IMG/VR virus record: IMGVR_UViG_3300034815_000027
Location: 1 to 54,389 of that record
DNA: 54,389 bases
Strand: one strand, 5' to 3'
DNA from: a virus
Lineage: Duplodnaviria; Caudoviricetes
The translations under genes were made by a program, and so were the position numbers. The notes beneath the pieces were generated by a model, which was given only the letters and a program-made list of their open reading frames with translations, was not told the origin of the DNA and ran no database searches. This document shows, one piece after another, positions 18,300-54,389 of this stretch; within the stretch, counting starts at the first letter, position 1; the number at the start of each line of letters is the position of its first letter.

Positions 18300-18550
18300 G
18301 ATGCCACGAAAGCCTCTCCCGTCCTATTGGACTGTTCAACCGCCGCACGGACCTGCGAGGCCTTAGTGCCAGCGGGCTGAATGCCCTGAGCCTTCGCAGC
18401 GCGATAGGCCTCAATACTCTTATCCCAATTCTTCTGGGTGGTTGCGTCACCGCCACCAATCCCACAGAACGCAACCTTCAGGTTTGCTGCCCGAAGGCAG
18501 TCCCCCCAAGAATCATGATCTTGGGTGGGACAGCCAGTGCGACAAGACAC
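18296..18550 (-). CDS. Hypothetical protein
   Basis: CRTGCPTQDH.SWG.C, coupled ORF. Confidence 0.7.
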   Translation of the reverse strand: MSCRTGCPTQDHDSWGDCLRAANLKVAFCGIGGGDATTQKNWDKSIEAYRAAKAQGIQPAGTKASQVRAAVEQSNRTGEAFVAS

Positions 18551-18870
18551 TACAGAATCGCCCCCACACTAGGCCGCTGCTCGATTACGGAAAGAATTGC
18601 TCGGGCCTTCGCCTGTTCCACCATGTTGGAGCGGATAGCAGCCTGTGCGTCGTCGTGTGCCCACAGTTGTGACACGAGCACCACATCGTTGAGGTCGTCT
18701 ACTCCGGAGATAGCCGCGTGCTTGTCTGCCGCGCCTTTCAAGTGCGCGAGATGTTCGGGCCATACGCTCGGGAGGCCTGATGCGATGGACGTGTAGAGGT
18801 CGATGCCGCGCTGGTAGTCGGCAACCTCGTCACGCCGGGTGGCGATGGGATCAAATACAGGTTCGGTCAT
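18550..18870 (-). CDS. Putative fibre/RBP chaperone (phage A allele)
   Basis: AAAGGA RBS before ATG 18870, directly downstream of the RBP. 94/107 aa identical to the 53867-54190 ORF by manual count. Confidence 0.7.
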   Translation of the reverse strand: MTEPVFDPIATRRDEVADYQRGIDLYTSIASGLPSVWPEHLAHLKGAADKHAAISGVDDLNDVVLVSQLWAHDDAQAAIRSNMVEQAKARAILSVIEQRPSVGAIL

Positions 18871-18880
18871 TGTGTTTCCT

Positions 18881-19084
18881 TTCATCAGATGAATGCGACA
18901 CGCTTAGACCACCCGAGTGGCAGGCTGGCGGGGTTTGCGTATTTCGTACCGAACCCGGACGACCACGGGTAGGCGGTGATATATGGAGTGCTTGAGGAGG
19001 GGAGTGCGACTGCTCCACCGCCCGCTATGAAAGACCCGTCCTGACTATTCGAGGTAGGCAGGCTGGCAGGATTCGCGTACTTCG
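18881..19084. repeat. Long direct repeat, copy 1 (near-identical core)
   Basis: Matches 54186-54389 with one mismatch (18957 G versus 54262 A). Weaker homology extends left to about 18580. Confidence 0.97.
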
Positions 19085-19904
19085 TACCGAACCCAGACGA
19101 CCACGGATAGGCGGAAACGAACGGTGTAGTCGTGTGACCGATGACAAGATCCGTACCCGATGGATTGAATGACACACCGTTGCCATTGCCGGTAGGTAGC
19201 GTCGCCGGGTTCGCATACTTTGCCCCGAATCCTGCAGACCACGGGTACACCGAAACGTATGGTGATGTCGAATGACCAACGGCAACGACAGTCCCTGCCG
19301 GATTGAACGCAACGCTGTTTCCGCCGCCCGTTGGTAGCGTTGCAGGGTTCGCGTATTTGGTACCGAAACCAGACGACCACGGATAGGCGTAAACGAACGG
19401 CGTAGTCCCAACCACGAAAACCACTGTCGTTCCGTCTGGCGTAAATGCTATGTCGTTACCGTTCGCGGTGGGCAGTGTTGCAGGGTTCGCATACTTCGCA
19501 CCGAACCCAGACGACCACGGATAAGCCCCGATATACGGTGTGCTTGAATGCCCCATAGCGAGAACCGTTCCGGCAGCATTGAACTTGAGTGCCTGTACCG
19601 CACCGCCCGGAAGTGTTGCCGGGTTTGAGTATTTGCTTCCGAAACCCGCCGACGACCATCCATACACTGCGATATACGGCGTGGTTCCGTCACACATGGC
19701 GATTGCGGTGCCGAGCGGGTTGAAGTCCACACCACCGTTGGTTGCCGACCCGGCTGGTGATGCCGGTGCGGACACCTTTGCTCCGTATCCGCCACTAGAC
19801 CACGGATATACGGAGATGAATGGTGAAACATCGTGCGTTACCGCGAGAAACGATGAAACAGCCGCCGATTTGAGTGCGGCAAGCATCATCAAAATGCCGG
19901 GCAT
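18885..19904 (-). CDS. Repeat beta-propeller receptor-binding protein
   Basis: Seven ~43-aa repeats containing YPWSSGFGTKYANPATLP. TGATG coupling to the upstream fibre gene. Confidence 0.75.
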   Translation of the reverse strand: MPGILMMLAALKSAAVSSFLAVTHDVSPFISVYPWSSGGYGAKVSAPASPAGSATNGGVDFNPLGTAIAMCDGTTPYIAVYGWSSAGFGSKYSNPATLPGGAVQALKFNAAGTVLAMGHSSTPYIGAYPWSSGFGAKYANPATLPTANGNDIAFTPDGTTVVFVVGTTPFVYAYPWSSGFGTKYANPATLPTGGGNSVAFNPAGTVVAVGHSTSPYVSVYPWSAGFGAKYANPATLPTGNGNGVSFNPSGTDLVIGHTTTPFVSAYPWSSGFGTKYANPASLPTSNSQDGSFIAGGGAVALPSSSTPYITAYPWSSGFGTKYANPASLPLGWSKRVAFI

Positions 19905-20467
19905 CAGGTCAACCCATTTCCTGAAATGATCCACGAAGTCGCCGTGATCTTCACAATCGTCGCCATACCGAAAGCCGCAAGCGTACGCGAACCCGTAGTT
20001 CCAGCACCCGCCAAATACAACGTGTCAGTAGTGATAGCGATAGTCGTCGTCACGGCGGAAGCATTCACTACAACAAACGTTGTACCAATCTCAAACGCTG
20101 TCGCACTGTTTGCCGGAATCGTCAACGTCTGACCCGTAGTAGTGAAATAGACGTGCTTCCCGGCATCACCGAGCGCCAGCGTGTACGATGCAGACTTCGA
20201 CAACTGCGGCATACCCATGTATCCGGCCTGCGAAGCCGCAGTAGCGGCAACCGACGCACCGGGCGTGATGATCGGACCCGTTGCGAAAACGAGCACGCCA
20301 GAGCCGGTCTCGTCACTGATGACGCCAGCGAGTTCAGCGGAGGTCGTGGCGGCAAACTGTGAGAGTTTGCCGGACAGTGGAGCCTTCGCGTTCACCGCAG
20401 CCCACAGGTTCTTCGCTTCAGTGCCGGCGCGAGTGGCGAGCGCCGACACCTGTGTGGCGAGGCTCAT
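19904..20467 (-). CDS. Short fibre protein carrying the propeller RBP
   Basis: FAATTSAELAGVISDETGSG and YTL.L.DAGK...TLTIPANS..AF.IGT...W.ISG fibre motifs. Confidence 0.75.
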   Translation of the reverse strand: MSLATQVSALATRAGTEAKNLWAAVNAKAPLSGKLSQFAATTSAELAGVISDETGSGVLVFATGPIITPGASVAATAASQAGYMGMPQLSKSASYTLALGDAGKHVYFTTTGQTLTIPANSATAFEIGTTFVVVNASAVTTTIAITTDTLYLAGAGTTGSRTLAAFGMATIVKITATSWIISGNGLT

Positions 20468-20470
20468 CGA

Positions 20471-21109
20471 CTACACCAGGGCCGCTTCGAATACGGTGAC
20501 GAAGTTCGTGGTGGTGTCGCCGACCGACGCGATGAGCGAGTACGGCGCATACAGGTCGGCGAGGGTCACCGCACCGACGCGACCGTCGACGCTCGATACT
20601 GCGTCGGTGGGGGTGAGCATTTCCTTCCAGTCGGCCAGCGTGGAGGGGCTGTCGGTGGCGAGGATGTAAGTCTTGTTGACGTCGGTGCGGATGGCGACGT
20701 CGCCACGCTGCGCAGTCAACGCGAGCATCGCTGCCTGCGAAGCGACGATGAAGGGCTCACTGATGGCCAGCGGCGGCATCTGTGAGGTCGGGATGAGACC
20801 GCTGGCGTCGAGTGAGGCGACGCCGTTGGCCGCACCCATCGTGGACGATGGCACGTACGACGTGGTGTCCAGCGACCAGGTGTCCGCTGCCGTCTTCTTC
20901 AGCAGACCGCTCGCGCCTGCGAGGGCGGCGATGGCGCTGAGGTCGGCGTCGATCGGCTGCTTGCCAGCGTTGAGCTCATTGACGGCGGCGACGATGCTGG
21001 TCTTGTCCGTCGTCGTCAAGCCGGTGAGCGAACCGATGGTGGCGCGCACCGCCTTGAACTCGGTGCCGATGCGTGTGGCGAGGTCAGAGACCTTGACTGC
21101 CAGGCTCAT
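20471..21109 (-). CDS. Fibre/collar protein
   Basis: L..L.TTDK.SIV.A.NE, GAANGVASLD.SG.IP..Q and V.SV.GR.GAV.L motifs. Confidence 0.75.
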   Translation of the reverse strand: MSLAVKVSDLATRIGTEFKAVRATIGSLTGLTTTDKTSIVAAVNELNAGKQPIDADLSAIAALAGASGLLKKTAADTWSLDTTSYVPSSTMGAANGVASLDASGLIPTSQMPPLAISEPFIVASQAAMLALTAQRGDVAIRTDVNKTYILATDSPSTLADWKEMLTPTDAVSSVDGRVGAVTLADLYAPYSLIASVGDTTTNFVTVFEAALV

Positions 21110-21119
21110 GGGGTTCCTT

Positions 21120-21311
21120 TCAGATCAGTGCGTTGTCGAAGATCAAGATGAGATCCGGCGGATCGATGAGATCTGCCGGGACGTTCGCCGTCACGCCGTC
21201 GAGTCCTTGCGGACCTGGCGGGCCCTGAATGCCGGGCATCTGCACGCGCACACGGAAGACGTCGGTGGTGGCAACGACTTGGTGCGTCACCTGCGTGATC
21301 TTCACGCTCAT
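21120..21311 (-). CDS. Small collagen-like virion protein
   Basis: GIQGPPGPQG triplets. The C-terminus resembles that of the next gene (IFDNALI versus VFEAALV). Confidence 0.6.
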   Translation of the reverse strand: MSVKITQVTHQVVATTDVFRVRVQMPGIQGPPGPQGLDGVTANVPADLIDPPDLILIFDNALI

Positions 21312-21661
21312 CGCACAACCCCCGGCTGCACCGTGAAGGTGCCGGCAATGAATGGCGGCTTGCCTCCATCGGGTTCGATGAGTTCGAAGCCGTGGACGTA
21401 GCGCCGCGCCGTGACGCTCGCGGTGACTGCAGCTGGGACAAGGAACGTGAACGAGTCGCCGATGATGGTGATCTCGCCGCTCGCGCTGTCGCGCTCGAGC
21501 ACGATGTCTGCATCATCTGCGCTGGTGCGCAACTGCCAACGCACGCGGTAGCCGGCGAGATTGACGTTCCCCTCGATGGTGACGAGGAACTCCCAATCCT
21601 TGCCTTGCTCGGCCACGATGTTGAGCACGTCGGATGTGAGGGCGAGGTCGCTCATAACCAC
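21308..21661 (-). CDS. BppU-like fibre-anchoring protein
   Basis: EQG..W, NL.GY....QLR, G.F.V.PGV. Confidence 0.6.
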   Translation of the reverse strand: MVMSDLALTSDVLNIVAEQGKDWEFLVTIEGNVNLAGYRVRWQLRTSADDADIVLERDSASGEITIIGDSFTFLVPAAVTASVTARRYVHGFELIEPDGGKPPFIAGTFTVQPGVVR

Positions 21662-22029
21662 TCCATTCCGATGTTCACCTCGGCATCGAGTGGGACACCG
21701 ACGAGCGTGGGGTTCGAGAGCAGGATGGACGTCATGCGATCGTCAGCGTTCAGCACATCGACGACGCGACCGTCGAGTACGACAACCACTTTCTGCGGTG
21801 GTTCGTCGAGGACGCGGACCTGATCCCAGTGCCCGATGGGGCAGGCGGCGTTCGGCAGTGTCGTCTTGAGCGCCATGACGCAGTGGCATTCGACGCACAC
21901 GCCGGCACGTAGGTTCGGACACTGCCCGCAGATCGCCATGCGCTCGCGTGCGATCTCAGTTTCGACACGTCCGAGCCTGGTGTTGAACAGGTCCCAGGGA
22001 CGCGCTGGCCGTGCGAATGGATCCGGCAT
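21652..22029 (-). CDS. CxxC-rich adhesin partner (phage B allele)
   Basis: GGAGGGG RBS before ATG 22029. Homolog of 13654-14043. Confidence 0.75.
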   Translation of the reverse strand: MPDPFARPARPWDLFNTRLGRVETEIARERMAICGQCPNLRAGVCVECHCVMALKTTLPNAACPIGHWDQVRVLDEPPQKVVVVLDGRVVDVLNADDRMTSILLSNPTLVGVPLDAEVNIGMEWL

Positions 22030-22037
22030 TTCCCCTC

Positions 22038-23063
22038 CTACATCGCGCTGCTGAAGGCGTCGACAGTGCTGCCTTGTGCCAAGCCGCCGGGGGCCTTGAC
22101 GATGCCGGTGGACGTGCCGCGATTGGGCGACGCGGGCGTCTTCGCGTTCGTGCCCAGGAGCGTCGTCATTGCGGCGTCGCTGTACGCGGTGGCGGTGATC
22201 GTCGTGCCAGCGGTGACAACCTTGATCGCCGCCGGAGCCGACGCGATGCTTACGTCGTCGGTGGTTGCGATGGCACCGGACACCATGGACACCAGGCGCA
22301 GCTTGTGCGCGGTGCTCGATGTCGTGGAGTCGGTGCAGCGGTACTCGGTGGTCGAGCCTGCCGTCGCCGAGCAGCGGTACTGGGTCGTCGGGAAGCAGCA
22401 GTAGGGGTTGGAGTACGTGCCACCGTCGGTCGCGCATTGGGCGGCGGCTCCGGCGCCGAAGAGGGCGAGGTAGTTCTGGCTGCAATCGGGCGTCCCCGCC
22501 TGCGTTTCCCGCACCCCGCAAGCACAGGTTACAGGGTCGGTGTATGACCAGGCGGTTGCAGCGCCGGAACAATCAGCCACAGACTGTGTCTGTCTGACAC
22601 CGCAGGTGCACGTTACCGGATCGGTCGTAGACCACGCGGTAGCGCCACCGCCACAGCCAGAAGACGAAGTGGAGTAGTGGAACGACGCCCACCAGTTATT
22701 CGCGTCGGTGATCCACGCGGCGGGGCCGCACCCCTGCGACACGCTTGCCGATGTGGTGGCGTCCTGGGCTCCGAGGGCCACCGCTGCCAGCGGGTAGCCC
22801 GACGCACTGTCTGCGCTGTTGGCCTGGTTGGAGACCACAGACCAAGTGCCACGCAGGCCGCTCCACGCCTGTCCGGTATCGGTGTTGCCGAGTGCGCCGT
22901 TGGCGCGGTTGAACGCGTCAGTGATGACCGCGGCGATCCACTGCCGCCATGTGCCGCCGACCTTCACGAACGCGACCGACACGTTGCGCCATGTGCCGCC
23001 GACCTTCACCTTCGCCGCGGTCACGCTGTGCCAGGCGCCGCCGACCTTGACCTTCGCCGTCAT
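22038..23063 (-). CDS. Cys-rich tail-fibre tip adhesin (phage B allele)
   Basis: Homolog of 14049-15062 with a different 12-Cys insert. Confidence 0.75.
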   Translation of the reverse strand: MTAKVKVGGAWHSVTAAKVKVGGTWRNVSVAFVKVGGTWRQWIAAVITDAFNRANGALGNTDTGQAWSGLRGTWSVVSNQANSADSASGYPLAAVALGAQDATTSASVSQGCGPAAWITDANNWWASFHYSTSSSGCGGGATAWSTTDPVTCTCGVRQTQSVADCSGAATAWSYTDPVTCACGVRETQAGTPDCSQNYLALFGAGAAAQCATDGGTYSNPYCCFPTTQYRCSATAGSTTEYRCTDSTTSSTAHKLRLVSMVSGAIATTDDVSIASAPAAIKVVTAGTTITATAYSDAAMTTLLGTNAKTPASPNRGTSTGIVKAPGGLAQGSTVDAFSSAM

Positions 23064-23509
23064 GGTCGCACCTTCATCTTGTCCTTGTAGCGACGCTTCG
23101 CTTCTCGCGAGCAAGTGCGACAGAGCCTGGAATCCCCTGTCGCACCTCGCTGTCGCGCGGTGTTCTCAGGGGTGAACTCGTGGCCGTGCTTGCAGTGAGT
23201 GGCGCCTTGCCACTGATTGCGCCAGCGACCCTTCGCAGCCATGTCCTCGGAGTTGTCCTTGAGCGTGCCGATGAACAGGTGTGCGGGGTTGACGCAGCAC
23301 CGCACGTCGCAACGGTGCAGGACGTACAGCCCAGCAGGGATGGGGGCGACGTATGCCTCGTACGAAACTCGGTGCGCCTTGTGGTACTTGCCTCGGACCG
23401 AGACGGTGCCGTAGCCGTTGATGTCGATAGTCTTTTGCCAGATCCAACAGCCGTTCGCATCGATGAGGATGCTCGATGCGATTCGACGCTCAAGCGTTGC
23501 GTCAGACAT
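23060..23509 (-). CDS. Free-standing HNH homing endonuclease
   Basis: GCWIW, GYG, AHRVSY, VLHRCD...CVNP.HL..GT..DN and C-terminal THCKHGH...C.TC. Confidence 0.9.
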   Translation of the reverse strand: MSDATLERRIASSILIDANGCWIWQKTIDINGYGTVSVRGKYHKAHRVSYEAYVAPIPAGLYVLHRCDVRCCVNPAHLFIGTLKDNSEDMAAKGRWRNQWQGATHCKHGHEFTPENTARQRGATGDSRLCRTCSREAKRRYKDKMKVRP

Positions 23510-24047
23510 AGCGCAGCCAGACGTCACCGTCTGCGCCGCCAGACGGATCCGCGGTGGACATGGTGACCTGCCGCACGCCGCTGGAGCCGGCGGCGGTCGG
23601 TGACGTGACGTTGGCCAGTGGCAGTGTGACGGTGCCGGTGAATGTCGGCGACTCAATCGGAGCCTTGTCGGCGAGCGCGGCAACGGTGGCAAGTGCGCTG
23701 GCCTGGACCCCGTCGACCGTGTCCGCGTCCAAGCCCGAGCCTGCGCCGTCGACCGTGAGGAGCAGCGCGAGCAGCTGCGCTGCCGTGAGCGCAGGCTGCG
23801 CTGCGGCCCAGTTCGCAGCACCGGCACTGCCGGAGGTGTTGACCTCGAGGCGGCCGGCGGTGCTATTCCAGATGACGATGCCCGCCCACAGATTCGACCC
23901 GGACAACAGGTCGCGCTGCGTAGTGGTGTGGATGCCGCCCCAGGCGTGGGCGTCCAGCCAGGCGGCGAGGTTCGCCAGTTGCGTTGGCGCGTCTGCAGGG
24001 TCCGAGCCGGTCGGGTATGGGACGCCCTTGGCAGTGGTCGCGGTCAT
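23502..24047 (-). CDS. Tail fibre (phage B)
   Basis: G.GSGLDAD.VDG motif. C-terminus shared with 15066-15659. Confidence 0.78.
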   Translation of the reverse strand: MTATTAKGVPYPTGSDPADAPTQLANLAAWLDAHAWGGIHTTTQRDLLSGSNLWAGIVIWNSTAGRLEVNTSGSAGAANWAAAQPALTAAQLLALLLTVDGAGSGLDADTVDGVQASALATVAALADKAPIESPTFTGTVTLPLANVTSPTAAGSSGVRQVTMSTADPSGGADGDVWLRYV

Positions 24048-24063
24048 CGTCGACGTCCTTTCG

Positions 24064-24651
24064 TTACAGGGAGCCGGTGAGCAGTTGGCTGAACGTCTTG
24101 CCCGTGGCGGTGACGGCGTCCCACGTGGCGTACGTCGTGTTGATCTCGCTCCACGTGACACCCGGCAGGATCTCGACGGTGAGGGTGACGCCGATGGGTT
24201 TCGCCTGGAGCAGAAGTCGCGCGATGTCGGCTGCGGTGGTCGCCGGGTTGATGAGCTGTGGCGCATACACGCGCACGCGCACCGCCCATGCGCTGCCGTC
24301 GCGTTCGGTGATGTCCACGCGCTTGCCGCCGGTGAGGAAGGTCTGTGCGAGCTCGATCAATGCGGCCGGTGTGCCGCGTCGCCACATGAGGTGCGAGAGC
24401 ACCTGTGCCCGCTGTTCCGCTAGCGGCAACGCTGCATCGATGCGGGCGCCGGCGAGTTGCCCCAACCATGCTGGCTGCGGTGTCGTGGCCAAGTCGAGCA
24501 CCGTGGGCCACCCACCGGTCGCAGGTTGCAGCAGTGCGTCCGCGGTTTCAGCGGGGCTGGTGAGCCCGTCGACGAGGTCTTCGAAGAGTGTGCCGGCGTT
24601 GTCTTCGAACGTCTCCCCCAGACCCGCGCGCATGCGGGTGGCGAAGGTCAT
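24064..24651 (-). CDS. Baseplate/tail protein (P2 gpI-like)
   Basis: WLGQ..G, RRGT, KP.G, located after baseplate J. Confidence 0.7.
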   Translation of the reverse strand: MTFATRMRAGLGETFEDNAGTLFEDLVDGLTSPAETADALLQPATGGWPTVLDLATTPQPAWLGQLAGARIDAALPLAEQRAQVLSHLMWRRGTPAALIELAQTFLTGGKRVDITERDGSAWAVRVRVYAPQLINPATTAADIARLLLQAKPIGVTLTVEILPGVTWSEINTTYATWDAVTATGKTFSQLLTGSL

Positions 24652-24652
24652 G

Positions 24653-25843
24653 TCACACCACCGTGACGGTGATGGTGGAGCCGGACGCACCCAGCGGCGA
24701 GGGAAGTGCGCCCGGCCCCGTCAGCGACGCCGCTGTCGATGATCCGTTGATGGAGATTGCGGTGATCGATGCGACGCCGGCGACGCGGCCGAGGACCGCT
24801 GAGACGTCGAAGCTCGACAGGCTGTCGCGTTCGCTCCAGGTCGTGATGTCGCCTGAGACGGTGCCCCAGTTCGCGGGACTGATGAGCGCGGTCAACGCCG
24901 CGAGCGCAGCGTCGTGGACGGCGGTGGTGGTGTAGGCGCTGTCGCGGGCGATGGTGACGTTGAGTGCGACGTTCGTGTACGTGGGGTCGATGAGGTGGAA
25001 GATGAAGTTCACTTCCCGTGTCGACTCGAGCAGCGTCGTGAGCTCTGCCTTCTTCCCACCGGTGAGGACTGCACCGGCGGCGTCGACGGCGATGACGGTG
25101 ATGGTCTTCTCCGCGGGGACCGTCGGGGCTGCCGGGTTGTACATGTCCAGGGCGAGTGCCCGCTGCACACCCGTGATCGTCGTCGCGAGTGCTGCGACAT
25201 CTGAGGCAAGGACACCGCCCGGTCGCAGCGTGGCAGCCCATGCGGTGAAGCGTGCGAGGAACGCGGCGATGCTTTCGGCGTCCGTGCCGCCGATGCCCGC
25301 GTTGATGACGGTGGCGGCGATGACGGTGAGGGTGGCACTGATGACGGTGGCCGTGGCGCCGGCGTTGACGTTGCCTGCCGCGCCGGCGTCGACGGCGATG
25401 AGATCGACACTCATGGTGCCGTGCCAGGAGCCGTCGGTCGCGGCGGTGAAGTTCACGAGCGCGGTGGCGTCGTTGGCGAGCGTGAAGGCAACGTCACTGA
25501 CGGCGATCGTGAAGCCGCGCAGCACGGCCATGGCCTGCGTGAACGGCGCCGTGCCAGCCGAGGCCGGCAACGAGAGTGTGAGTTGCACGCCGGGCAGGGT
25601 CGCCTTCGCTGCCTCGATAGGGGCGAAGCCGAATGCGGTCGCGACGCCGGCGGCCGCCAGCTGCGTGGAGGCCAGCGCGAGCGCGTTGGTAGCCGCGATC
25701 TGCAGCGCGAACTCTTCGGCGAGTGCCACCTCTGGGGCTCCCTCGTTGGGCAGCCATCCGGGGATGCGGGTGGCGAGGCCGGTGAGGATGTCGGCGGTGA
25801 TGGTGTCGGCATCTGCGTCGATGGTGATGGGGTCGAAGGCCAT
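24653..25843 (-). CDS. Baseplate J-like wedge protein
   Basis: A...G..GN, GG.DAES..F..R, GV.RA motifs. Confidence 0.85.
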   Translation of the reverse strand: MAFDPITIDADADTITADILTGLATRIPGWLPNEGAPEVALAEEFALQIAATNALALASTQLAAAGVATAFGFAPIEAAKATLPGVQLTLSLPASAGTAPFTQAMAVLRGFTIAVSDVAFTLANDATALVNFTAATDGSWHGTMSVDLIAVDAGAAGNVNAGATATVISATLTVIAATVINAGIGGTDAESIAAFLARFTAWAATLRPGGVLASDVAALATTITGVQRALALDMYNPAAPTVPAEKTITVIAVDAAGAVLTGGKKAELTTLLESTREVNFIFHLIDPTYTNVALNVTIARDSAYTTTAVHDAALAALTALISPANWGTVSGDITTWSERDSLSSFDVSAVLGRVAGVASITAISINGSSTAASLTGPGALPSPLGASGSTITVTVV

Positions 25844-26163
25844 CAGGCTGCTCCTATCACGTCGAGGGCAATGTTCACGATGTCGTGGCGTTCGCCCGTG
25901 GCGAGCACGGAGGCGATGGTCTCGATAGCGACCGCTGAGACGCGGTCGTCCCACTCGCTGATGGCGTGCGCAATCTCCGCCTCATCGACGTCGAGTTCGC
26001 CGATCGGATCGACCAGGCCGTAGTCGGGGATGGCGGCGCGCTGTCCGCGCGGCGTGGACAGCAGCAGCGCGATGGACTGCGCGACGTCAGCCGCGGAGTC
26101 CTGCACCAGCGTCGCTAAGGCACCGCTTGGAGCGAGGTCGAGGGGCAGTCGGAGCGTGTGCAT
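25843..26163 (-). CDS. Baseplate gp25/gpW-like protein
   Basis: QSI..LL.T..GQR...PDYG, I..WD.RV. Confidence 0.82.
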   Translation of the reverse strand: MHTLRLPLDLAPSGALATLVQDSAADVAQSIALLLSTPRGQRAAIPDYGLVDPIGELDVDEAEIAHAISEWDDRVSAVAIETIASVLATGERHDIVNIALDVIGAA

Positions 26164-26390
26164 TACTCGTCCTTCCCTGCGATCCATGGCCCGCCATCGG
26201 TGAAGATGAGGAGCACGATGTCGCCGACCGCGAGTCCGGTCTTCTTGCCCAGGCATGGGCCGATGGGGTGCTGTCGGTCGCCGCCGAGCGGGGCAACAAA
26301 GACATCGCGAGGCGTCACGCTGACCACCTGCGCGGTGGCCGGCGGGTAGTCGGTGCGGCTGCGCTGCCGTGCGAGCAGGTCATCGAACAT
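26163..26390 (-). CDS. Small baseplate spike-like (OB-fold) protein
   Basis: VGD.VL..F..G.PW, position in the baseplate cluster. Confidence 0.55.
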   Translation of the reverse strand: MFDDLLARQRSRTDYPPATAQVVSVTPRDVFVAPLGGDRQHPIGPCLGKKTGLAVGDIVLLIFTDGGPWIAGKDE

Positions 26391-26396
26391 GGCGAC

Positions 26397-27179
26397 TCAC
26401 AGTCCGGTTGTCGGGCGCTGCAGCCGCACCGTCGACTGCGATCGATCGAGCAGTCCACGCGACCACGACGCGACGAGCCAGTCGCCGTCGGCAGGACCGT
26501 GGCCGGCGAGGGTGAGGACGCGGCCGATGTCGGCGCTCCACTGTGCGGTGCGCACCGTGAGGTTGGCTTCGTCAATGGCGCGACCGGTGTCGATGGTGCA
26601 GCCGATGTCGATGACGGCGCCCACGTGCTCGAACACCGCGAGCGGTGTGCCGCGCTGCAGGAGCCAGGCATCTGAGCCCATCAGCACGGTGTTGCCGTCG
26701 GAGAACAGGCGCCAGCCTTCGCGGGCGGCGATGTCGGTGAGCATCTGCCAGGAGGAGGTCGTGGCCCCGAGGCTGCGGCCAAGCACGCGGTGCGGCTTGG
26801 TCGACGCCTGCGGGTCGAGCGTGAGTTGCACGCGGCCGTCGCTGGCGAGTCGTGCTGCGTACTGTGCGAGTGTCTGCGATCCGCCGCGCACGCTGAGTCT
26901 GCCGGCGGGCTGACGGAGTGCTGCGATGAGCGTGTCCTCGAAGGTGAGTGTCAGTCGCGTGCCTTGCTTCTCCACGCGTGCGAGCGTGAATCCGAGGCCA
27001 TCGACGATCGCCGTGAGAGTCGGCTTCACTCGCAGTAGCAGCGCACCCGCATCGTCGCGGAGCGCGACCTCGAGGATGCTCGCATGCTCGATGCTGCGCG
27101 TGAGAATCGGATCGCCGAGCACGTGTGGGAGCAGTGTGCCGTCGCTGAATTCGAGTCGATCGGCGAGGTCACTGGCCAT
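26397..27179 (-). CDS. Baseplate hub-like protein
   Basis: SW..L..IA..EGW..F and G..DG.WLV, position after tube initiator. Confidence 0.6.
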   Translation of the reverse strand: MASDLADRLEFSDGTLLPHVLGDPILTRSIEHASILEVALRDDAGALLLRVKPTLTAIVDGLGFTLARVEKQGTRLTLTFEDTLIAALRQPAGRLSVRGGSQTLAQYAARLASDGRVQLTLDPQASTKPHRVLGRSLGATTSSWQMLTDIAAREGWRLFSDGNTVLMGSDAWLLQRGTPLAVFEHVGAVIDIGCTIDTGRAIDEANLTVRTAQWSADIGRVLTLAGHGPADGDWLVASWSRGLLDRSQSTVRLQRPTTGL

Positions 27180-27711
27180 GCATCGCGCTCGCAGTTCGCA
27201 CCGGGGCTTTCGCCTTGGCGAGGAGCTTGTCCTTCACGTTCTTCGCGGGCTTGCCCTTGGCGGTGGCCGCGACGTACTCGGTAAGTTCGAGGACGAAGTC
27301 CTGCTGCACGATGACGCCACGCTGATCGCGGCGCATCTCACCTGGCGTGAGGTTCGTGAGGACCCACTTGATGGTCGCCGAGGTCTGCACGTTGCCGGTG
27401 AGTCCGAGGATCGGCGGGTCGGTGATCTTGCCGTCGCTGCTGCCTGGTTGTCCCATGGCGAGCAGGATCTTGATTTCGGCCTCGACAGAGCGTTGTCCGC
27501 GCGGCGTGACGCCGTCGAGTCGGATCGGCAGTGTGTAGACGAGGGCCGGCAGCCCGGTCCAGGCGGTGGACTGCTTGTCACGCTTGACGTCGTTGACGCT
27601 CCAGCCACCGACACCACCGGCGAAGGTGTCGACGTCGACGAGTTTGCAGACGATGGACGCCTTGCGCGGCGAGGTCTGCGTGATCTTTACGGTCTTCGGA
27701 CGGGCGCTCAT
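27169..27711 (-). CDS. Tail tube initiator-like protein
   Basis: WV..L...L.L.EY, immediately after the tape measure gene. Confidence 0.55.
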   Translation of the reverse strand: MSARPKTVKITQTSPRKASIVCKLVDVDTFAGGVGGWSVNDVKRDKQSTAWTGLPALVYTLPIRLDGVTPRGQRSVEAEIKILLAMGQPGSSDGKITDPPILGLTGNVQTSATIKWVLTNLTPGEMRRDQRGVIVQQDFVLELTEYVAATAKGKPAKNVKDKLLAKAKAPVRTASAMHGQ

Positions 27712-29645: not shown

Positions 29646-29655
29646 CGTCGTCCTC

Positions 29656-29907
29656 CTATCCGTGGAGTTTCGGCAGGTTCTTCGCCAGCCAACGCGTCAT
29701 GTGTTCGACGGTGAGTGACGAGGTCTTCGATGCCAGGTAGTCGAGTTCGCCCTGCCGCTGTTCGGCGTCGATGTGGGCGCGCTCGGTGAGGACCGCGCTC
29801 ATGATGCGCTGGTCATCTTCGGCCAGCGCCAAGAAGGTCAGCGGGTCGATACCGAAGTGGGAGGCCACCGCTGCCGATGTGATGGCAGGGTGGCCTAGGA
29901 GTTTCCC
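29656..29907 (-). CDS. Tail assembly chaperone, frameshift extension (gpT-like)
   Basis: The -1 frame entered at GGGAAAC reads KLLGHPAITS.... Confidence 0.75.
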   Translation of the reverse strand, partial: GKLLGHPAITSAAVASHFGIDPLTFLALAEDDQRIMSAVLTERAHIDAEQRQGELDYLASKTSSLTVEHMTRWLAKNLPKLHG

Positions 29908-47418: not shown

Positions 47419-47433
47419 TGGTGTTCCCCTTGG

Positions 47434-48241: not shown

Positions 48242-48591
48242 AGTGCGTCCCCGTAGCCGGCCGCGCGGAGTAGTTGTGTGATCTGTTCCAGTGTGAGCAC
48301 ACACCACCAGTCACCGACGCGCTTCTCCCCGACTCCGACTGGCTTCACGACGAGGATGCCGAAGTCGGCTCCGGCGTTGATGCGCTCGGTCTGGGTCTCG
48401 GCCAACCATGCTGGGATGGCGTACTTGGCGCGGTTCTTCACTTCCCAGGCAAGGCCCGGGCCGGTGAGGATGTCGCCGAGGTCGTTGGTGCCGGCGAGGG
48501 CGCGGCGTTCGGCGGTAGGGAATCCGTTGGCGCGCAGGAAGTCGACGGTCTTGGTTTCCGCCCAGGTGCCTTTGTCCTTGCTCTTGCTCAT
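48238..48591 (-). CDS. Holliday junction resolvase
   Basis: SK.KGT..E, ERRAL.G..D.GDI, EVK. Confidence 0.85.
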   Translation of the reverse strand: MSKSKDKGTWAETKTVDFLRANGFPTAERRALAGTNDLGDILTGPGLAWEVKNRAKYAIPAWLAETQTERINAGADFGILVVKPVGVGEKRVGDWWCVLTLEQITQLLRAAGYGDAL

Positions 48592-49373
48592 GCGGCGGCC
48601 TTGAGTCGACGGATGACGGTCTCCCGGCACACGCCGACGCGTTCGGCGATCTGCGGCAACGTGTAGCCCTGTTCGCGCAGCTCGATGATCTCGGCGATGT
48701 CCACGCGCGACTTCAGCGTGGACCCGAACTCGGCACCGTGCGGCTTGGCCTTGGGGTCATCGATGGTGCCTTCGTCCCACGCCAGGGGCGGGGCGTATCC
48801 GCGGCGCGTGTTGCGGCGGCGACTCAACTCTGACGGGCCTGGCTTCATGGACAGTTCGTCGAACATGGCGGCGATGGCAGCGTGCGTCCGCACGGTGATC
48901 CATTCGCCCTTCTGGTTGAGGGTGACGGCGGTGGTGATGCCGCTGTGTGCCTTCATCGCCTGGTGTGTCCACCCGATGGCGAGCAGCGCTTGGATGCGTC
49001 GCACGGATCCCAGGCGGGGCACGAACGTCTCATCGTTCCGCCCGACAGGCAGCCAGATTGGGCCTTTGACGGCCATGATCTTGCGGGCGGTGGTGATGTG
49101 CATGCCTTTGCCGGGGTTGCGGTACACGCCGTCGAGGGTGGTGCGTGAGATGCCGGCGGCGTGCGCGATGGAGCCGCGGGACATGCCGGCGGCGCGCAGC
49201 TTGTCGACGTGGTCGCGGACCTTGTCGGCGGGCACGACCCGCCTCAAGCCGTGTGCACGCTCGTATTTCCACCGCTTGGTTTCCAGGGCGTGGGCACGCT
49301 TGCAGGGTTCGCAGTAGTCGGTGCCGGCGCGGCGGTGCGCCCAGTAGCCGGCGTTCGTTCCGCACTCGCTCAC
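48588..49373 (-). CDS. Multi-HTH DNA-binding protein
   Basis: CGT..GY..H...C..C, two HTH motifs, RRIQAL.A.GW, PPLAWD...IDDP. Confidence 0.75.
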   Translation of the reverse strand: MSECGTNAGYWAHRRAGTDYCEPCKRAHALETKRWKYERAHGLRRVVPADKVRDHVDKLRAAGMSRGSIAHAAGISRTTLDGVYRNPGKGMHITTARKIMAVKGPIWLPVGRNDETFVPRLGSVRRIQALLAIGWTHQAMKAHSGITTAVTLNQKGEWITVRTHAAIAAMFDELSMKPGPSELSRRRNTRRGYAPPLAWDEGTIDDPKAKPHGAEFGSTLKSRVDIAEIIELREQGYTLPQIAERVGVCRETVIRRLKAAA

Positions 49374-50080: not shown

Positions 50081-50253
50081 CGCGTTTCACCGGCTTCGGT
50101 GTCGGCGTAGCGGACGACGATGTTCTGGCGGCTCTGCGCACGGTTCGCGCGGCCGTCGAGGTACCCGATGAGACGGTACCCACCGAGGATGATGACGATG
50201 CCTCCGATGATCGCCTTGACGACGAACTCGAGGTCTCCTGGCTGTAGATTCAC
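50077..50253 (-). CDS. Small membrane protein (58 aa)
   Basis: GGGAG RBS and GTG start, MNLQPGDLEFVVKAIIGGIVIILGG.... Not in the ORF track. Confidence 0.55.
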   Translation of the reverse strand: MNLQPGDLEFVVKAIIGGIVIILGGYRLIGYLDGRANRAQSRQNIVVRYADTEAGETR

Positions 50254-50385
50254 GGTGCTCCCTGTGCTGTGAATGCGGATGGAGTGCCTCGCTGGGTCGC
50301 TTCGCCCTAGGAAAGTTCGGCGACCCAGCGAGGGTCTTGCAGTGATCCGTCGGCGGCTCGGGGGAAAGCCGACCGACGGAAGTTG

Positions 50386-50595
50386 TTAGACGCGAATGAC
50401 GCCTGCGGCGACCTTGGATTCGCGGAGGGTTTCGATGTCGGCGCGCCAGAAGAGCATGAACGCCTTGGGGCCGTCGCCGAATCGCTTGGCGGGCTGGATG
50501 TCACCGAACTTGACGTAGCGGGAGAGCGTGGAACGATCAACGCCGAGCATCTTGATGGCTTCGGTCGTTGAGATCAGATCGTCGATGCTGTGCAT
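50386..50595 (-). CDS. Cro/Xis-like winged-HTH protein
   Basis: LIST.EA...LGV.RSTL.R.V..G.I, divergent from the repressor. Confidence 0.8.
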   Translation of the reverse strand: MHSIDDLISTTEAIKMLGVDRSTLSRYVKFGDIQPAKRFGDGPKAFMLFWRADIETLRESKVAAGVIRV

Positions 50596-50708
50596 GTGGC
50601 AGATCGTCTTACATTGGAAGAATATCCGTCAAGAGCCATTGTCTATAGATGTTGCCACTTTGCGCCGAACGGTCATTCATTGCCCATCGGGTGTGCAATA
50701 CTCATTGC
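50596..50708. promoter_or_regulatory. Divergent immunity control region
   Basis: AT-richer than its flanks. Minus-strand TTGACG-N18-GACGAT-N7-ATG suggests a leaderless cro mRNA. Four CATTG copies. Confidence 0.6.
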
Positions 50709-51056
50709 ATGACAACCGCACACGACTTCATGATCCCTGAGTTTCAACTCGGCGACCGCATGGCGTTGGCACTACGCAACGCCGGGCATTCGCAGCAGGA
50801 GGCAGCGGAATACTTCGGCGTCACACGACAGACCATCAGCGCATGGACCAACGGCAGAAACGTGCCCAAGAAGGGTGAGCTGACGCTCTGGGCGCTCTGG
50901 ACCGGCGTCCCGCTGTCATGGCTTCAGACGGGCGAAAAGCCCGCCGATGGCGGGCCTGACGGTGGCTTGCTCCCCCGTTTGGACTCGAACCAAAAACCGC
51001 CCGGTAAATTGGTTTACGTCCGCTTTCGGCCCTCCCTCGTCGGCATCGCAGCCTGA
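50709..51056 (+). CDS. Immunity repressor (XRE HTH) with internal attP and C-terminal degradation tag
   Basis: SQ...A...GVTRQTISAW.NG, TGVP..WL.TG, LPRLDSNQKP, ends LVGIAA. Confidence 0.9.
   Translation: MTTAHDFMIPEFQLGDRMALALRNAGHSQQEAAEYFGVTRQTISAWTNGRNVPKKGELTLWALWTGVPLSWLQTGEKPADGGPDGGLLPRLDSNQKPPGKLVYVRFRPSLVGIAA
50969..51005 (-). other. attP core: 3' half of a tRNA (probably tRNA-Asn)
   Basis: Reverse complement ACCGGGCGGTT-TTTGG-TTCGAGT-CCAAA-CGGGGGA-GC gives variable loop, T-arm and acceptor strand. No 5' half is present. Confidence 0.85.
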
Positions 51057-51089
51057 AACGATGCGCCCTCACCTGACAAGGGGGCGACG

Positions 51090-51878
51090 ATGAGAAATGA
51101 AGAGGTCGTTGAGCTGTGGCTCAACTGGTATAGAGCCGGGGCAGCGCCGGTCTCGACAGTGCGTGTGCGTCGATCGCAGATCGGCAAGGTGGCCGCGCAC
51201 GTGGAGCTGCTGCACGCCACGGAGGATGACCTCGTGGCCGTACTGGCCTCGATGGAGGGCCAGGCGTGTGAGACGCGCCGCGCCATTCTGAACGCCATGC
51301 GCTCGTTCTACGGTTGGGCGTTACGCCGCGGCTTCATCGCCGCCGATCCAACCGTCGATCTGCGGGCGATTCGCGTCCCGCAAGGGCTGCCGAAGCCCAT
51401 CGCCGAAGATGACCTCACACTCGCCCTGTCACGCGCAGATCGAGAGACGCGGCTCATGCTGCTGCTCGGTGCCTACGCCGGACTGCGTCGCGCAGAGATC
51501 TCACGGGTCCACTCCGACGATGTGACCGCAAACGGCCTGCGCGTGCTCGGAAAGGGCGGCAAGGTGCGTCGAGTTCCGCTGCACCCGATCCTGCGTGATG
51601 CGCTCGCCGAAGTGAATGGTTGGGCCTTCCCGTCCCCGCGATTCCCTGGCGAGCACGTGCAGGCGTGGACGGTCGGCGACAGGCTCGAGAAGGTGCTGCC
51701 GCAGCCGTGGACGGCGCACTCGCTACGGCACAGGTTCGCAACGATGGCCTATCGCGGCACGCACGACTTACGGGCCGTGCAGACGCTCCTAGGCCACACG
51801 AAGCCAGAGACGACGGCCCGCTATACGCTCACTGGTGATGACGATCTCATCGCGGCCGTGAATGGCATCGCCGCATAA
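51090..51878 (+). CDS. int: Tyrosine integrase lacking the arm-binding domain, with C-terminal tag
   Basis: GLRR.E, GKG.K.R, HSLRH, LLGH, T.RY. Only 262 aa, ends NGIAA. Confidence 0.93.
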   Translation: MRNEEVVELWLNWYRAGAAPVSTVRVRRSQIGKVAAHVELLHATEDDLVAVLASMEGQACETRRAILNAMRSFYGWALRRGFIAADPTVDLRAIRVPQGLPKPIAEDDLTLALSRADRETRLMLLLGAYAGLRRAEISRVHSDDVTANGLRVLGKGGKVRRVPLHPILRDALAEVNGWAFPSPRFPGEHVQAWTVGDRLEKVLPQPWTAHSLRHRFATMAYRGTHDLRAVQTLLGHTKPETTARYTLTGDDDLIAAVNGIAA

Positions 51879-52095
51879 CTACGCGCGCGAGGTTCCTGCG
51901 AGGATGCCGGCGTACCGTCCTGCGCATAGACCAGGGCGACGCGCTCGCGATCTGGGAGGTGCGCTCACTCCCCCAACCTCGCGAGGTCGCGGCGTGGGCG
52001 TTGTGGCTCGGTGAGGACCCGTGCGACTATGCGAGCCTGCTCTTCCACAGGAGGCCATAGCCTGACAGGCTGAAGCCCTGACTTGAGGGGGCATC

Positions 52096-52800
52096 ATGAG
52101 TGACGTTGTGTATTGGCTGTCGAGCGCGGGGTTCGCGGCGCTGGCGTACGTCTGGGCCGAGCGGCTGGGGCGACGCGCGATCGCCTGGGCGGTGGCCTGC
52201 TTCTTCTTCAACTGGATCGGCTTCGCGATCCTTGCCGTCGCAGTCCTCATCGCTTCCCGACGCAAGCCTGCGGCCACCGCCGTGAGCGCTGGATCTGCGT
52301 TGGGACCGGATTGGCTGCCCGTGGAGACAGTGGCATCCACGCCGCGGCCGGGAGGGCCTCGGGCGTATCGGTCGGCCGCGACGCGTCCGCCCATCACCGT
52401 CGAGTTCCAATACGACGAGGACGACCAGGACGACGACGATGAAGACGAGGACGACGAAGACGAGTTCTTGTTCGAGGTCGTGGGCGAGTCGCACCACCGA
52501 GCTGCACTCATCGCTCTGCTGAAGAAATGGGGTGACGCGAAGGCCGGAAAGAACGTGTTCCAACGCGCGTTCGCTCCCGCTGCGCTGGTGCGCGAGCCCA
52601 ACAACAAGTTCGACAAGAACGCCGTCGCCGTGCACGTCGACGGCCAGCTCGTGGGATACGTGCCGCGTGATGCAGCTGCAGAGCTCGCAGCAGTGCTCGG
52701 ACGCAATGGTCGACATGAGTGTCGTGCGATGCTGCAGGGACGGCTCGACGGGCTGATCGGTGTCACGCTCGATGCGGACATCGACGAGCTGCTGTCCTGA
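52096..52800 (+). CDS. Membrane-anchored HIRAN-domain protein
   Basis: Two N-terminal TM helices, Asp/Glu run, VVGES, LVREP.N.FD.NAV.V..DG..VGYVPR. Confidence 0.8.
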   Translation: MSDVVYWLSSAGFAALAYVWAERLGRRAIAWAVACFFFNWIGFAILAVAVLIASRRKPAATAVSAGSALGPDWLPVETVASTPRPGGPRAYRSAATRPPITVEFQYDEDDQDDDDEDEDDEDEFLFEVVGESHHRAALIALLKKWGDAKAGKNVFQRAFAPAALVREPNNKFDKNAVAVHVDGQLVGYVPRDAAAELAAVLGRNGRHECRAMLQGRLDGLIGVTLDADIDELLS

Positions 52801-52834
52801 CCGTAGCGCGAGCGCTCGGGATGTAGACATAGCA

Positions 52835-52878
52835 GAGCACCCCCACCACCCCGGAGGAAGGGGGTGGTGGGGGTGCTC
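52835..52878. terminator. Long hairpin between converging genes
   Basis: 18-bp stem gagcacccccaccacccc / ggggtggtgggggtgctc. Confidence 0.7.
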
Positions 52879-52906
52879 CGTTGCGCGCCGGCGTCGACCT
52901 CGAGAT

Positions 52907-53110: not shown

Positions 53111-53113
53111 GAG

Positions 53114-53356: not shown

Positions 53357-53362
53357 GGCGGT

Positions 53363-53809
53363 CTACTTCCTGACGATGGGTTTGCGGAGGATGACGCCCC
53401 ACTTAACTTTCGGGGACGGGTGGTACGTGTTGTCTGGGTGGTTGCCTTTGAGGCCGTCCCGGTGCGCGTCGTAGGCGACGGCCTGCTGCGCTGCGACGCG
53501 GGACAGGTCGCCGTTGCCGACCCGGATGGCGTGGACGTGCTGGATGTCGAAGCCTTGCGCGACAGTGCGATGCCAAGCGGCGAAGCCAGCGTCACGGAGT
53601 GCGGTCACCATGTCGTCGATTTGCGTGTCGGTCAGTCCGCGCACGGACAGGTCAACCGCGTCTTTGTCGTGCGTGCCGGACGATGCTGCGACGCCCGTGT
53701 GATAGCCGCCTTGCGTGATGCCGAACGTGAATCCGGCACGACGTTCCGCCCATTTGATGGCGGCGGGCGTACCGGGTGCGAAGGCGAATCCGCGGAACTT
53801 CACGAGCAT
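53363..53809 (-). CDS. Endolysin, single-domain Zn peptidase (M15/LAS-like)
   Basis: ITQG.Y...V.AS.GTHD..AVD, LR..GFAAW.R, HVHA. AAGGAGG RBS. Confidence 0.8.
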   Translation of the reverse strand: MLVKFRGFAFAPGTPAAIKWAERRAGFTFGITQGGYHTGVAASSGTHDKDAVDLSVRGLTDTQIDDMVTALRDAGFAAWHRTVAQGFDIQHVHAIRVGNGDLSRVAAQQAVAYDAHRDGLKGNHPDNTYHPSPKVKWGVILRKPIVRK

Positions 53810-53827
53810 GATGCCTCCTTGCATGAC

Positions 53828-53855
53828 GAAACCCCGCCACGAATGTGACGGGGTT
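53828..53855 (-). terminator. Terminator-like hairpin upstream of the lysis cassette
   Basis: Minus strand aaccccgtcac-attc-gtggcggggtttc. Confidence 0.5.
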
Positions 53856-53866
53856 GGCGGGTGGTG

Positions 53867-54175
53867 TTAGCTAGATGGACGGGCCTGGATCGCGGCGAGG
53901 ATTGCTTGCGCCTTCGCCTGCTCCACCATGTTGGAGCGGATAGCGGCCTGCGCATCATCGTGTGCCCACAGTTGTGACACGAGCACCACATCGTTGAGGT
54001 CGTCAACGGCAGCAATGGCCGCGTGCTTGTCTGTCGCACCTTTCAAGTGCGCGAGATGTTCGGGCCATACGTTCGGGAGTCCCGATGCGATGGACGTGTA
54101 GAGGTCGATGCCGCGCTGGTAGTCGGCAACCTCGTCGCGCCGAGCAGCGATTGGGTCAAAGGCTTGTTCTGTCAT
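53867..54175 (-). CDS. Putative fibre/RBP chaperone (phage B allele)
   Basis: Close homolog of 18550-18870. Confidence 0.72.
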   Translation of the reverse strand: MTEQAFDPIAARRDEVADYQRGIDLYTSIASGLPNVWPEHLAHLKGATDKHAAIAAVDDLNDVVLVSQLWAHDDAQAAIRSNMVEQAKAQAILAAIQARPSS

Positions 54176-54185
54176 GGTGTTTCCC

Positions 54186-54389
54186 TTCATCAGATGAATG
54201 CGACACGCTTAGACCACCCGAGTGGCAGGCTGGCGGGGTTTGCGTATTTCGTACCGAACCCAGACGACCACGGGTAGGCGGTGATATATGGAGTGCTTGA
54301 GGAGGGGAGTGCGACTGCTCCACCGCCCGCTATGAAAGACCCGTCCTGACTATTCGAGGTAGGCAGGCTGGCAGGATTCGCGTACTTCG
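54186..54389. repeat. Long direct repeat, copy 2
   Basis: 203/204 nt identical to 18881-19084. Confidence 0.97.
54190..54389 (-). CDS. 3' end of the beta-propeller RBP (truncated by the window edge)
   Basis: Identical protein to the C-terminus of 18885-19904. Confidence 0.85.
   Translation of the reverse strand, partial: KYANPASLPTSNSQDGSFIAGGGAVALPSSSTPYITAYPWSSGFGTKYANPASLPLGWSKRVAFI

Follow-up and report, generated by a model that had tools for sequence, protein, structure and literature searches.

The exchange of tail-fibre and receptor-binding protein (RBP) modules between otherwise unrelated phages is classic in P2, Mu, P1, lambda, and the T-even phages. Chimeric contigs are ascribed to repeat regions and to mosaic phage genomes in the available text of PMC10104058, which also describes unitigs common to several phage genomes. 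A beta-propeller RBP is described in the available text on Staphylococcus phage phi11, which has a Gram-positive host (PMC4901313). The window analysed here, the whole of one IMG/VR metagenome contig (IMGVR_UViG_3300034815_000027, 54,389 nt), consists of an arm of one phage (phage A, 1-18.6 kb) followed by a complete 35,305-nt circular temperate myovirus (phage B). It very probably represents two separate sediment phages joined by the assembler via a 1.7-kb tail-fibre cassette that both carry.

Composition of the record

1-186: tandem 12-nt repeats at the record start
1-18569: phage A arm, 55.8% GC
13654-16556, minus strand: phage A fibre genes
16983-18299, minus strand: phage A LysM protein with an endolysin-like C-terminus
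18550-18885, minus strand: small helical protein, phage A allele, 111 aa ('chaperone' by position only)
18570-20310, minus strand: cassette common to both phages, 1.74 kb, 57.4% GC
18885-19934, minus strand: seven-bladed beta-propeller protein, 349 aa, presumed RBP
19904-20467, minus strand: fibre protein, 187 aa, part phage B-specific and part common to phage A
20311-53874, minus strand: phage B-specific DNA, 66.6% GC
20471-24266: phage B fibres
24653-25954: phage B baseplate
27708-29645: phage B tape measure
30410-30817: phage B tube
30833-31969: phage B sheath
33962-34915: phage B major head protein
34917-36161: phage B protease
36171-37451: phage B portal
37467-39080: phage B large terminase
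41677-44121: phage B primase/polymerase
50649-51056, plus strand: phage B repressor
51090-51878, plus strand: phage B tyrosine integrase
53867-54190, minus strand: small helical protein, phage B allele, 107 aa, 60% GC
54190-54389, minus strand: second copy of the propeller gene 3' end, cut by the record end

The GC content changes in sharp steps, from 55.8% (187-18569) to 57.4% (18570-20310) and 66.6% (20311-53874), with a gap of ~11 points between phage A and phage B (56% versus 67%). The tandem repeats in 1-186 are likely an assembly break point; the phage A contigs of independent assemblies, if colinear, would also start within them (run X1, at window position 127; run X7, at 141). Neither bacterial genes nor a tRNA gene were found in the 54,389-nt window.

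The phage A arm encodes an exonuclease, a DnaB-like helicase, a primase, a phosphoesterase, and a sigma factor on the plus strand, and a 740-aa protein, the fibre genes, the LysM protein, and an 84-aa protein on the minus strand. The phage as a whole measures at least 43 kb (~56% GC), of which at least 22.8 kb lie outside the window. A megablast search of 1-18550 against 50,697 phage records returned no match, nor did a single-protein scan of viral_contigs with the LysM protein. The sequence seen of the phage A left arm past 20310 amounts to 30 nt.

Phage B-specific DNA and the cassette close to a 35,305-nt circle. The description of phage B as a temperate myovirus in an earlier note on this DNA is borne out by a complete ordered set of contractile tail, head, packaging, integrase, and repressor genes, with PHROG matches for the tail (sheath, 3.5e-29; tube, 9e-09; baseplate wedge, 8e-16), the head and packaging proteins (major head protein, 3.9e-78; portal, 3.1e-70; large terminase, 6e-49), and the integrase (1.3e-35; Pfam PF00589, 58.9 bits against a cut-off of 27.1), and a match for the repressor (2e-27). 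The integrase gene is flanked on either side by phage B genes, with no bacterial sequence next to it. The same note had placed an intact phage B attP in the middle of the loop; the integrase region is indeed unbroken, but the attP site itself was not located, with no tRNA gene and no decisive feature on visual inspection of 50150-50700 and 51800-52200.

The host of phage B is probably actinobacterial. A megablast search of 20470-45400 matched only the primase gene, at 72–75% in 14 Arthrobacter phage records, which may be a hint to the host and is silent on the join, and the large terminase matched one Mycobacteriales MAG contig at 44% identity, perhaps a faint hint to the host as well. A single-protein scan of viral_contigs with the baseplate protein and a scan of genome_contigs with the primase returned no match.

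A direct repeat at an offset of 35,305 nt (18570-19084 versus 53875-54389) is confirmed. The recurrence of the same chaperone and RBP, as previously proposed, is real as a repeat but is not whole: the small genes are 86% identical in DNA and the propeller gene is repeated over 200 nt only. This second copy holds just the last 200 nt of the gene (99.5% identical) because the record stops there; as the window covers the full record, position 54389 is the contig end. The repeat copies last differ at a SNP (18957/54262) directly before the final 127 nt of the record (54263-54389), which are identical to 18958-19084, so that, from this SNP on, the end of the contig repeats an internal stretch of the record. 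In common metaSPAdes use, 127 is the largest k-mer, and on sequence grounds the terminal identity resembles an assembly path that returns to a de Bruijn vertex.

The shared tail-fibre cassette

The cassette comprises the C-terminal two thirds of the 187-aa fibre protein, the propeller protein, and the small downstream protein. The proposed propeller fold was upheld for the 349-aa protein: it is made of seven 46-aa repeats, its structure model is a seven-bladed ring (pLDDT 92.9, pTM 0.88), and the best PDB matches of the model are seven-bladed designed propellers and a bacterial WD40 domain (E 1.7e-14 to 7e-13). A Pfam search returned zero families at E ≤ 0.01 and so no curated WD40 or propeller match. 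Precomputed hits to PF00400, PF25174, or PF23381 are on record for some relatives of the protein, and a source annotates some as 'WD40 repeat protein'. From the position of its gene, it is presumed to be the RBP.

The small gene lies directly 3' of the propeller gene in both phages, and the two alleles are 86% identical in DNA and share 94 of 106 residues (89%). Homologues occur in 9 of 80 related IMG/VR loci, directly downstream in all nine. Comparison with described chaperone families gave no PHROG and no Pfam match, and in the Atlas a feature search gave no usable match and a structure search only weak helical look-alikes; by its position, the protein is a candidate tail-fibre chaperone.

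Residues up to ~52 of the 187-aa fibre protein (20311-20467, 64% GC) are specific to phage B, and from the motif LAGVISDETGSG on the protein is common to phage A. The cassette has sharp edges, set by the conserved motif in the fibre gene and, at the opposite end, by the beginning of the small downstream gene. Near-identical RBP DNA in two phages, as had been suggested, applies to the fibre tip and propeller, which are at least 99% identical over ~1.4 kb, but not to the small downstream gene (86% at the nucleotide level). Such identity therefore marks a very recent event, and the module common to the two phages is ordinary tail-fibre mosaicism, recently shared. The GC content of the cassette (57.4%) is like that of phage A and unlike that of phage B, and phage B appears to have acquired the cassette from a phage of lower GC content resembling phage A. 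A blastn search of the cassette returned only two weak matches (67–76%), and a 40-nt exact word from it had no match in viral_contigs or metagenome_contigs.

Apart from the cassette, no shared DNA above ~76% was found between the two phages. A second fibre module, which lies next to the cassette and is older than it, is also common to both, at 51–77% protein identity. The earlier wording of 'two unrelated phages' fits their overall dissimilarity (56% versus 67% GC) but needs a qualifier because of this older module.

Phages A and B in independent assemblies

Four of the 19 listed public runs (X1, X7, X13, and X19) were compared as independent contig assemblies, with depth taken as one k-mer mean per contig (contigs, not raw reads); X1 is a possible source only of the record, and the word shares of the other 15 runs were set aside as evidence. 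The depth comparison called for by the earlier note, run in part on these contig assemblies, gave unequal depths in X1 for phage A (15.3, unitig 10000-18682) and phage B (~10; unitigs, 9.6–11.5), with their sum on the cassette (25.5, unitig 18653-20278), and the X1 contigs break at both cassette borders. In X7, one 42,957-nt contig (depth 157.2) covers 10000-20310 and then extends by more than 255 nt of dissimilar sequence, a continuation that was absent when sought in the whole window with up to three mismatches, while phage B bins have depths of 0.1–3.7. Likewise, a 34,187-nt phage A contig in X13 (depth 15.4) runs past 20310, with phage B at 0–0.45. Run X19 shows the reverse, with phage B at ~1.2–4.4 and phage A at 0–1.05. 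Among these four of the 19 runs, phage A thus occurs without phage B in X7 and X13 and phage B without phage A in X19, and A:B depth ratios range from ~50:1 to below 1:3.

X1 also contains the predicted alternative join, which leads from 53.87 kb into the cassette: a contig of depth 8.8 with copy-B letters has a loose end before 18596 that matches window 53871-53900 exactly. At the other border, X7 and X13 show the phage A left arm connected at 20310. Across 18640-18957, the variant letters of X1 and X19 equal the window copy-B letters at 12 of 12 positions, and X19 carries the window letters at 19664 and 20084. At 19664, 20084, 20192, 20195, and 20279, the letters of the phage A contigs depart from those of the window, but at 18957 they agree. 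The record is therefore of the A type at 18957 and of the B type from 19664, placing the switch made by the assembler inside 18958-19663, 706 nt that hold no listed difference between the two types.

Origin of the join and comparison with known systems

The separate occurrence of the two phages, their unequal depths, and the alternative join favour the second reading of the earlier note, two co-occurring phages fused by the assembler. The headline of that note, in which one phage holds an entire myovirus as a cointegrate, is therefore unsupported as the structure of a molecule. We infer the exact behaviour of the assembler to have been as follows. The cassette would form a de Bruijn graph node with two entries and two exits; the path would enter along phage A, cross the common node, leave along phage B, go once round the 35,305-nt circle and back through phage B's own small gene, and stop on re-entering a vertex already used. 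No molecule need have this structure.

It is very unlikely that the record instead reflects a real cointegrate, in which phage A and circular phage B recombined within the identical propeller DNA of a co-infected or lysogenic cell to give the order A-left, propeller, B small gene, phage B, propeller, A small gene, A-right. The two-in/two-out graph topology and the type switch in 18958-19663 would also be expected from a crossover, for which 706 nt without a listed difference are ample; the two phages do occur together in X1, and 5 of the 19 listed runs hold at least 0.95 of the sampled words of a stretch spanning both. However, equal abundance was not found in X1 (15.3 versus ~10), the two phages are uncoupled elsewhere (157 versus 0.1–3.7 in X7, 15.4 versus 0–0.45 in X13, and 0–1 versus ~3 in X19), and the dominant phage A molecules run past 20310 into non-B sequence. 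Further, the distance from a SNP to the end of the record is exactly 127 nt, which is expected of a graph path but not required of a molecule. The depth sum (cassette = A + B) was rejected as a sole test against a cointegrate since free phages and cointegrates would satisfy it in any proportion; among the depth results, only the unequal A and B depths and the A-only and B-only samples count against a cointegrate. At ~78 kb, a cointegrate would likely exceed the capacity of a 43-kb or 35-kb phage head and therefore be transient only.

A very slim chance is left to a minority of real A-B cointegrate molecules in the source sediment, recombined inside the 706 nt and captured by luck, which, if true, would represent a short-lived step in the exchange of tail modules between a phage of 56% GC and a temperate myovirus of 67% GC. 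Another real arrangement, either a recombinant in which a phage B backbone bears the phage A arm or a pair of adjacent prophages in a host chromosome, is scarcely credible: the contiguity of the record alone speaks for it, against a window with no bacterial or tRNA genes, an unbroken phage B integrase region, and a phage A arm that in the compared runs leads, at high depth, into a different left arm. For the recombinant, two replication modules and at least 54 kb on a 35-kb myovirus backbone would also be implausible.

Under the favoured reading of two phages fused by the assembler, the IMG/VR record should be split. Its completeness estimate of 80% fits neither phage, and a host prediction, gene-sharing network, or 'nested phage' claim drawn from the unsplit record would make a false link between two viruses. 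Phage B is recoverable as a complete 35,305-nt circle, and phage A is present in part only. Behind the artefact lies real biology of a known kind, an RBP module at least 99% alike in two very different phages of the same sediments. In the cassette, a recent exchange of a host-range module can be seen cleanly in nature, and this common receptor-binding module marks phages A and B as likely sharing a host.

The record resembles the chimeric contigs in the available text of PMC10104058 in having a common unitig with two entries and two exits and a path joining different genomes; the likeness extends to the summed depth on the common part. The genomes sharing unitigs in that text are close variants (>95% ANI), whereas the partners here are 11 GC points apart. 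As in phi11, in the available text of PMC4901313, a beta-propeller would stand at the host-recognition end of the tail, a role suggested here by gene position. No sequence relationship was detected between the 349-aa protein and the phi11 RBP. The phi11 platform is five-bladed, while the propeller here has seven WD40-like blades of 46 aa within 349 aa. As in classic tail-fibre mosaicism, the distal part of the fibre and the downstream accessory gene are common, the N-terminal anchor is phage-specific, and the breakpoint falls inside the fibre gene at a conserved motif. Compared with the classic cases, the module here is a seven-bladed propeller and not a fibrous tip, and its identity of at least 99% over ~1.4 kb is seen in environmental DNA.

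Direct repeat and probable assembly path

The window is the entire IMG/VR record IMGVR_UViG_3300034815_000027 (54,389 nt, classed as linear; CheckV completeness, 80%), so position 54389 is the end of a metagenome contig and not an arbitrary cut. The record joins an arm of phage A (~56% GC; 1–18.6 kb) to phage B (~67% GC; 20.3–53.9 kb) through a cassette carried by both phages (18570–20310, − strand: the C-terminal part of a 187-aa fibre protein, a propeller and a small protein). The direct repeat described previously, at an offset of 35,305 nt, was recovered (18580–18879 and 53885–54184, 88%; 18919–18976 and 54224–54281, 98%), with an alignment extending from ~18570/53875 to the record end. 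Identity per position was 86% for 18570–18884 and 99.5% for 18885–19084, and the final mismatch between copies (18957/54262) is followed by exactly 127 identical nt up to the record end. The earlier note had the same chaperone and receptor-binding genes recurring; the small gene does recur, but as a diverged allele, and only the last 200 nt of the large gene are repeated.

Genes at the repeat
18885–19934, − strand: 349-aa protein
18550–18885, − strand: 111-aa small protein, phage A allele, next after the 349-aa gene
53867–54190, − strand: 107-aa small protein, phage B allele, 94 of 106 residues identical to the phage A allele

Compared with the window, phage A contigs from two independently assembled sediment metagenomes (X7 and X13) have different letters at 19664, 20084, 20192, 20195 and 20279 and the same letter at 18957, while a third run, X19, which carries phage B, has the reverse pattern at the sites covered. 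Based on these letters, the record is A-type to 18957 and B-type from 19664, placing the switch within 18958–19663, and its terminal 127 nt are identical to those that open this stretch. A usual metaSPAdes k is 127, and the record looks like a path through a k = 127 de Bruijn graph that would enter a shared vertex from phage A, leave by the single exit, circle the phage B cycle and halt on reaching the same vertex again. In an independent assembly of run X1, the possible source, contigs end at each border of the cassette, which there has A-type letters; the A–B link therefore depends on the assembler. At the other end, the record begins with 12-nt tandem repeats (2–186), perhaps within a repeat-rich protein gene (ORF 3–695, − strand); the phage A contigs of X1 and X7, if colinear, would also start at ~127 and ~141, and this start is likely a general assembly break.

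Occurrence of the two phages across sediment metagenomes

A search of public runs with 14500–24499 as the query listed 19 sediment-metagenome runs, with the share of sampled words at 0.95–0.99 in five, 0.54–0.76 in 13 and 0.40 in one. Contigs from four of these were compared over 10000–29999, with depth as a single figure per contig.

Contig depth of each phage by run
X7: phage A 157.2; phage B 0.1–3.7; a single 42,957-nt contig spans 10000–20310, then unlike sequence
X13: phage A 15.4; phage B 0–0.45; a single 34,187-nt contig, same pattern as X7
X19: phage A 0–1.05; phage B ~1.2–4.4; copy-B letters in the cassette
X1: phage A 15.3; phage B 9.6–11.5; cassette unitig 25.5; contig breaks at both cassette borders

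The first 30 nt of the X7 and X13 continuation past 20310 were not found anywhere in the window with up to three mismatches allowed; read on the − strand, these nucleotides encode the same fibre motif in other codons. Phage A thus exists independently of phage B, and its left arm, at least 22.8 kb long, is its own. In X19, the cassette has copy-B letters at 18709–18778 and 18957 and shares the window's letters at 19664 and 20084. The X1 unitigs cover phage A (10000–18682) at a depth of 15.3 and the cassette (18653–20278) at 25.5, and a further X1 contig (depth, 8.8) has copy-B letters at 18640–18652 and a loose end matching 53871–53900 exactly. This is an alternative join linking 53.87 kb to the cassette, of the kind proposed earlier as a check. 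All 12 variant letters checked were the copy-B letters of the window.

The headline of the earlier note, a whole myovirus nested in another phage, was not upheld; of its two readings, fusion of co-occurring phages by the assembler is favoured, and the nested structure is very probably an artefact. Phages A and B could instead have been truly joined by homologous recombination, and the summed depth on the cassette in X1 is expected of any mixture of free phages and such cointegrates. However, the flanking depths proposed for comparison are unequal in X1 (15.3 compared to 9.6–11.5), the abundances of the two phages are uncoupled across samples, phage A has its own continuation at 20310, and a cointegrate of ~78 kb would presumably be too large for the head of phage A or of phage B. 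Even a minority of true cointegrates in the source sample is highly improbable. Chimeric contigs arising from repeats and mosaic phage genomes, and unitigs common to several phage genomes, are among the matters described in PMC10104058.

Gene content and composition

Phage A (1–18.6 kb) has replication genes on the + strand and, on the − strand, fibre genes, a LysM protein whose C-terminus is endolysin-like, and an 84-aa protein adjoining the small-gene allele. Head genes were not found in this arm, so phage A is incomplete in the record. Phage B (20.3–53.9 kb, mostly − strand), judging from PHROG matches, is an ordered and complete temperate myovirus, with a repressor and then a tyrosine integrase (50649–51878, + strand; PHROG), followed by RusA, exonuclease, primase/polymerase, small and large terminase, portal, protease, major head protein, sheath, tube, tape measure, baseplate wedge and several fibre genes. 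Past the fibres lie the cassette, the small-gene allele of phage B, then small genes and the integrase, closing a circle of 35,305 nt (33,564 nt B-specific and 1,741 nt cassette). The phage B primase DNA (41677–44121; 72–75% identical to 14 Arthrobacter phage records), a WhiB-like N-terminal match (48588–49373) and a terminase 44% identical to a stretch of a Mycobacteriales MAG contig (locus L083) weakly suggest an actinobacterial host. In the tape-measure region (26057–28898), a contig links 28898 back to 26057 in X1, X7 and X19 (depths 14.1, 3.65 and 3.49), with an identical 31 other letters between in all three runs; this contig could represent a variant, a relative or a repeat.

GC content was 55.8% for 187–18569, 57.4% for 18570–20310 and 66.6% for 20311–53874, and third-position GC was 0.52–0.68 in phage A genes and the cassette and 0.70–0.90 in phage B genes. 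Because composition is phage A-like both in the cassette and in the small-gene allele of phage B, a phage of lower GC may have been the source of the two, with the phage B lineage gaining them in two or more steps of different ages.

Shared fibre modules

Near-identical DNA in both phages, as previously proposed, holds over 18881–20310 (1,430 nt), where the A and B types differ at six listed sites and 13 at most (12 other letters in the X7 piece plus 18957; 99.1–99.6% identity), but not over the small gene (86%). Upstream, the cassette is bounded within the motif LAGVISDETGSG of phage B (20280–20340), at residue ~52 of the 187-aa fibre protein; phage A has LAGVISDK there, with the shared part next. 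In IMG/VR loci L019 and L020, the match of relatives to this protein likewise begins at residue 42, and the motif may be a recurrent recombination joint.

A second, older fibre module is also common to both phages (phage A, 13654–15659; phage B, 21652–24266).

Homologous ORFs of the older module
phage A 14049–15062 and phage B 22038–23114: 51% protein identity, 348 aa
phage A 13654–14043 and C-terminal part of phage B 21652–22572: 67%, 123 aa
C-termini of phage A 15066–15659 and phage B 23502–24266: 77%, last 60 aa

Elsewhere, comparison of A and B DNA gave no further similarity beyond two weak matches (69–76%) in this module. The older module together with the 99% cassette indicates two or more exchanges at the fibre loci. 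An HNH endonuclease ORF of phage B (23060–23827, − strand; PHROG 1.9e-40, residues 97–252) separates the fibre gene from the 358-aa gene of the older module, and the phage A homologues of these two genes are directly adjacent (15066–15659 and 14049–15062); the ORF looks like a homing-endonuclease insertion in the fibre locus.

The 349-aa protein has seven repeats of 46 aa each, modelled as an all-beta ring (pLDDT 92.9, pTM 0.88; alignment of 35 relatives) with 7-bladed designed propellers and a bacterial WD40 domain as top PDB matches. Its family is large: of 8,000 candidates scored, 1,446 proteins reached E ≤ 1e-20, relatives are ≤57% identical throughout the 120 listed matches, and 241 IMG/VR stretches match it. 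Among 80 IMG/VR loci examined, nine have a small-protein homologue, directly downstream every time, and 22 encode the domain found at the C-terminus of the 187-aa protein. Searches of Pfam, PHROG and Atlas returned no family for the small protein; gene position suggests roles as chaperone for it and in receptor binding for the 349-aa protein. The propeller blades form 138-nt tandem units (18919–19666), and two neighbouring units 90% identical in DNA (18919–18976 and 19057–19114) suggest recent blade duplication or conversion. These units are an added hazard in short-read assembly.

Unrelated phages are well known to swap distal fibre modules. Receptor-binding proteins built on a beta-propeller have been described in staphylococcal phages (PMC4901313 and PMC7048315). 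The cassette shared by phages A and B is real, a tidy but ordinary instance of a recent swap of tail-fibre modules, and nothing in the record amounts to a new kind of system.
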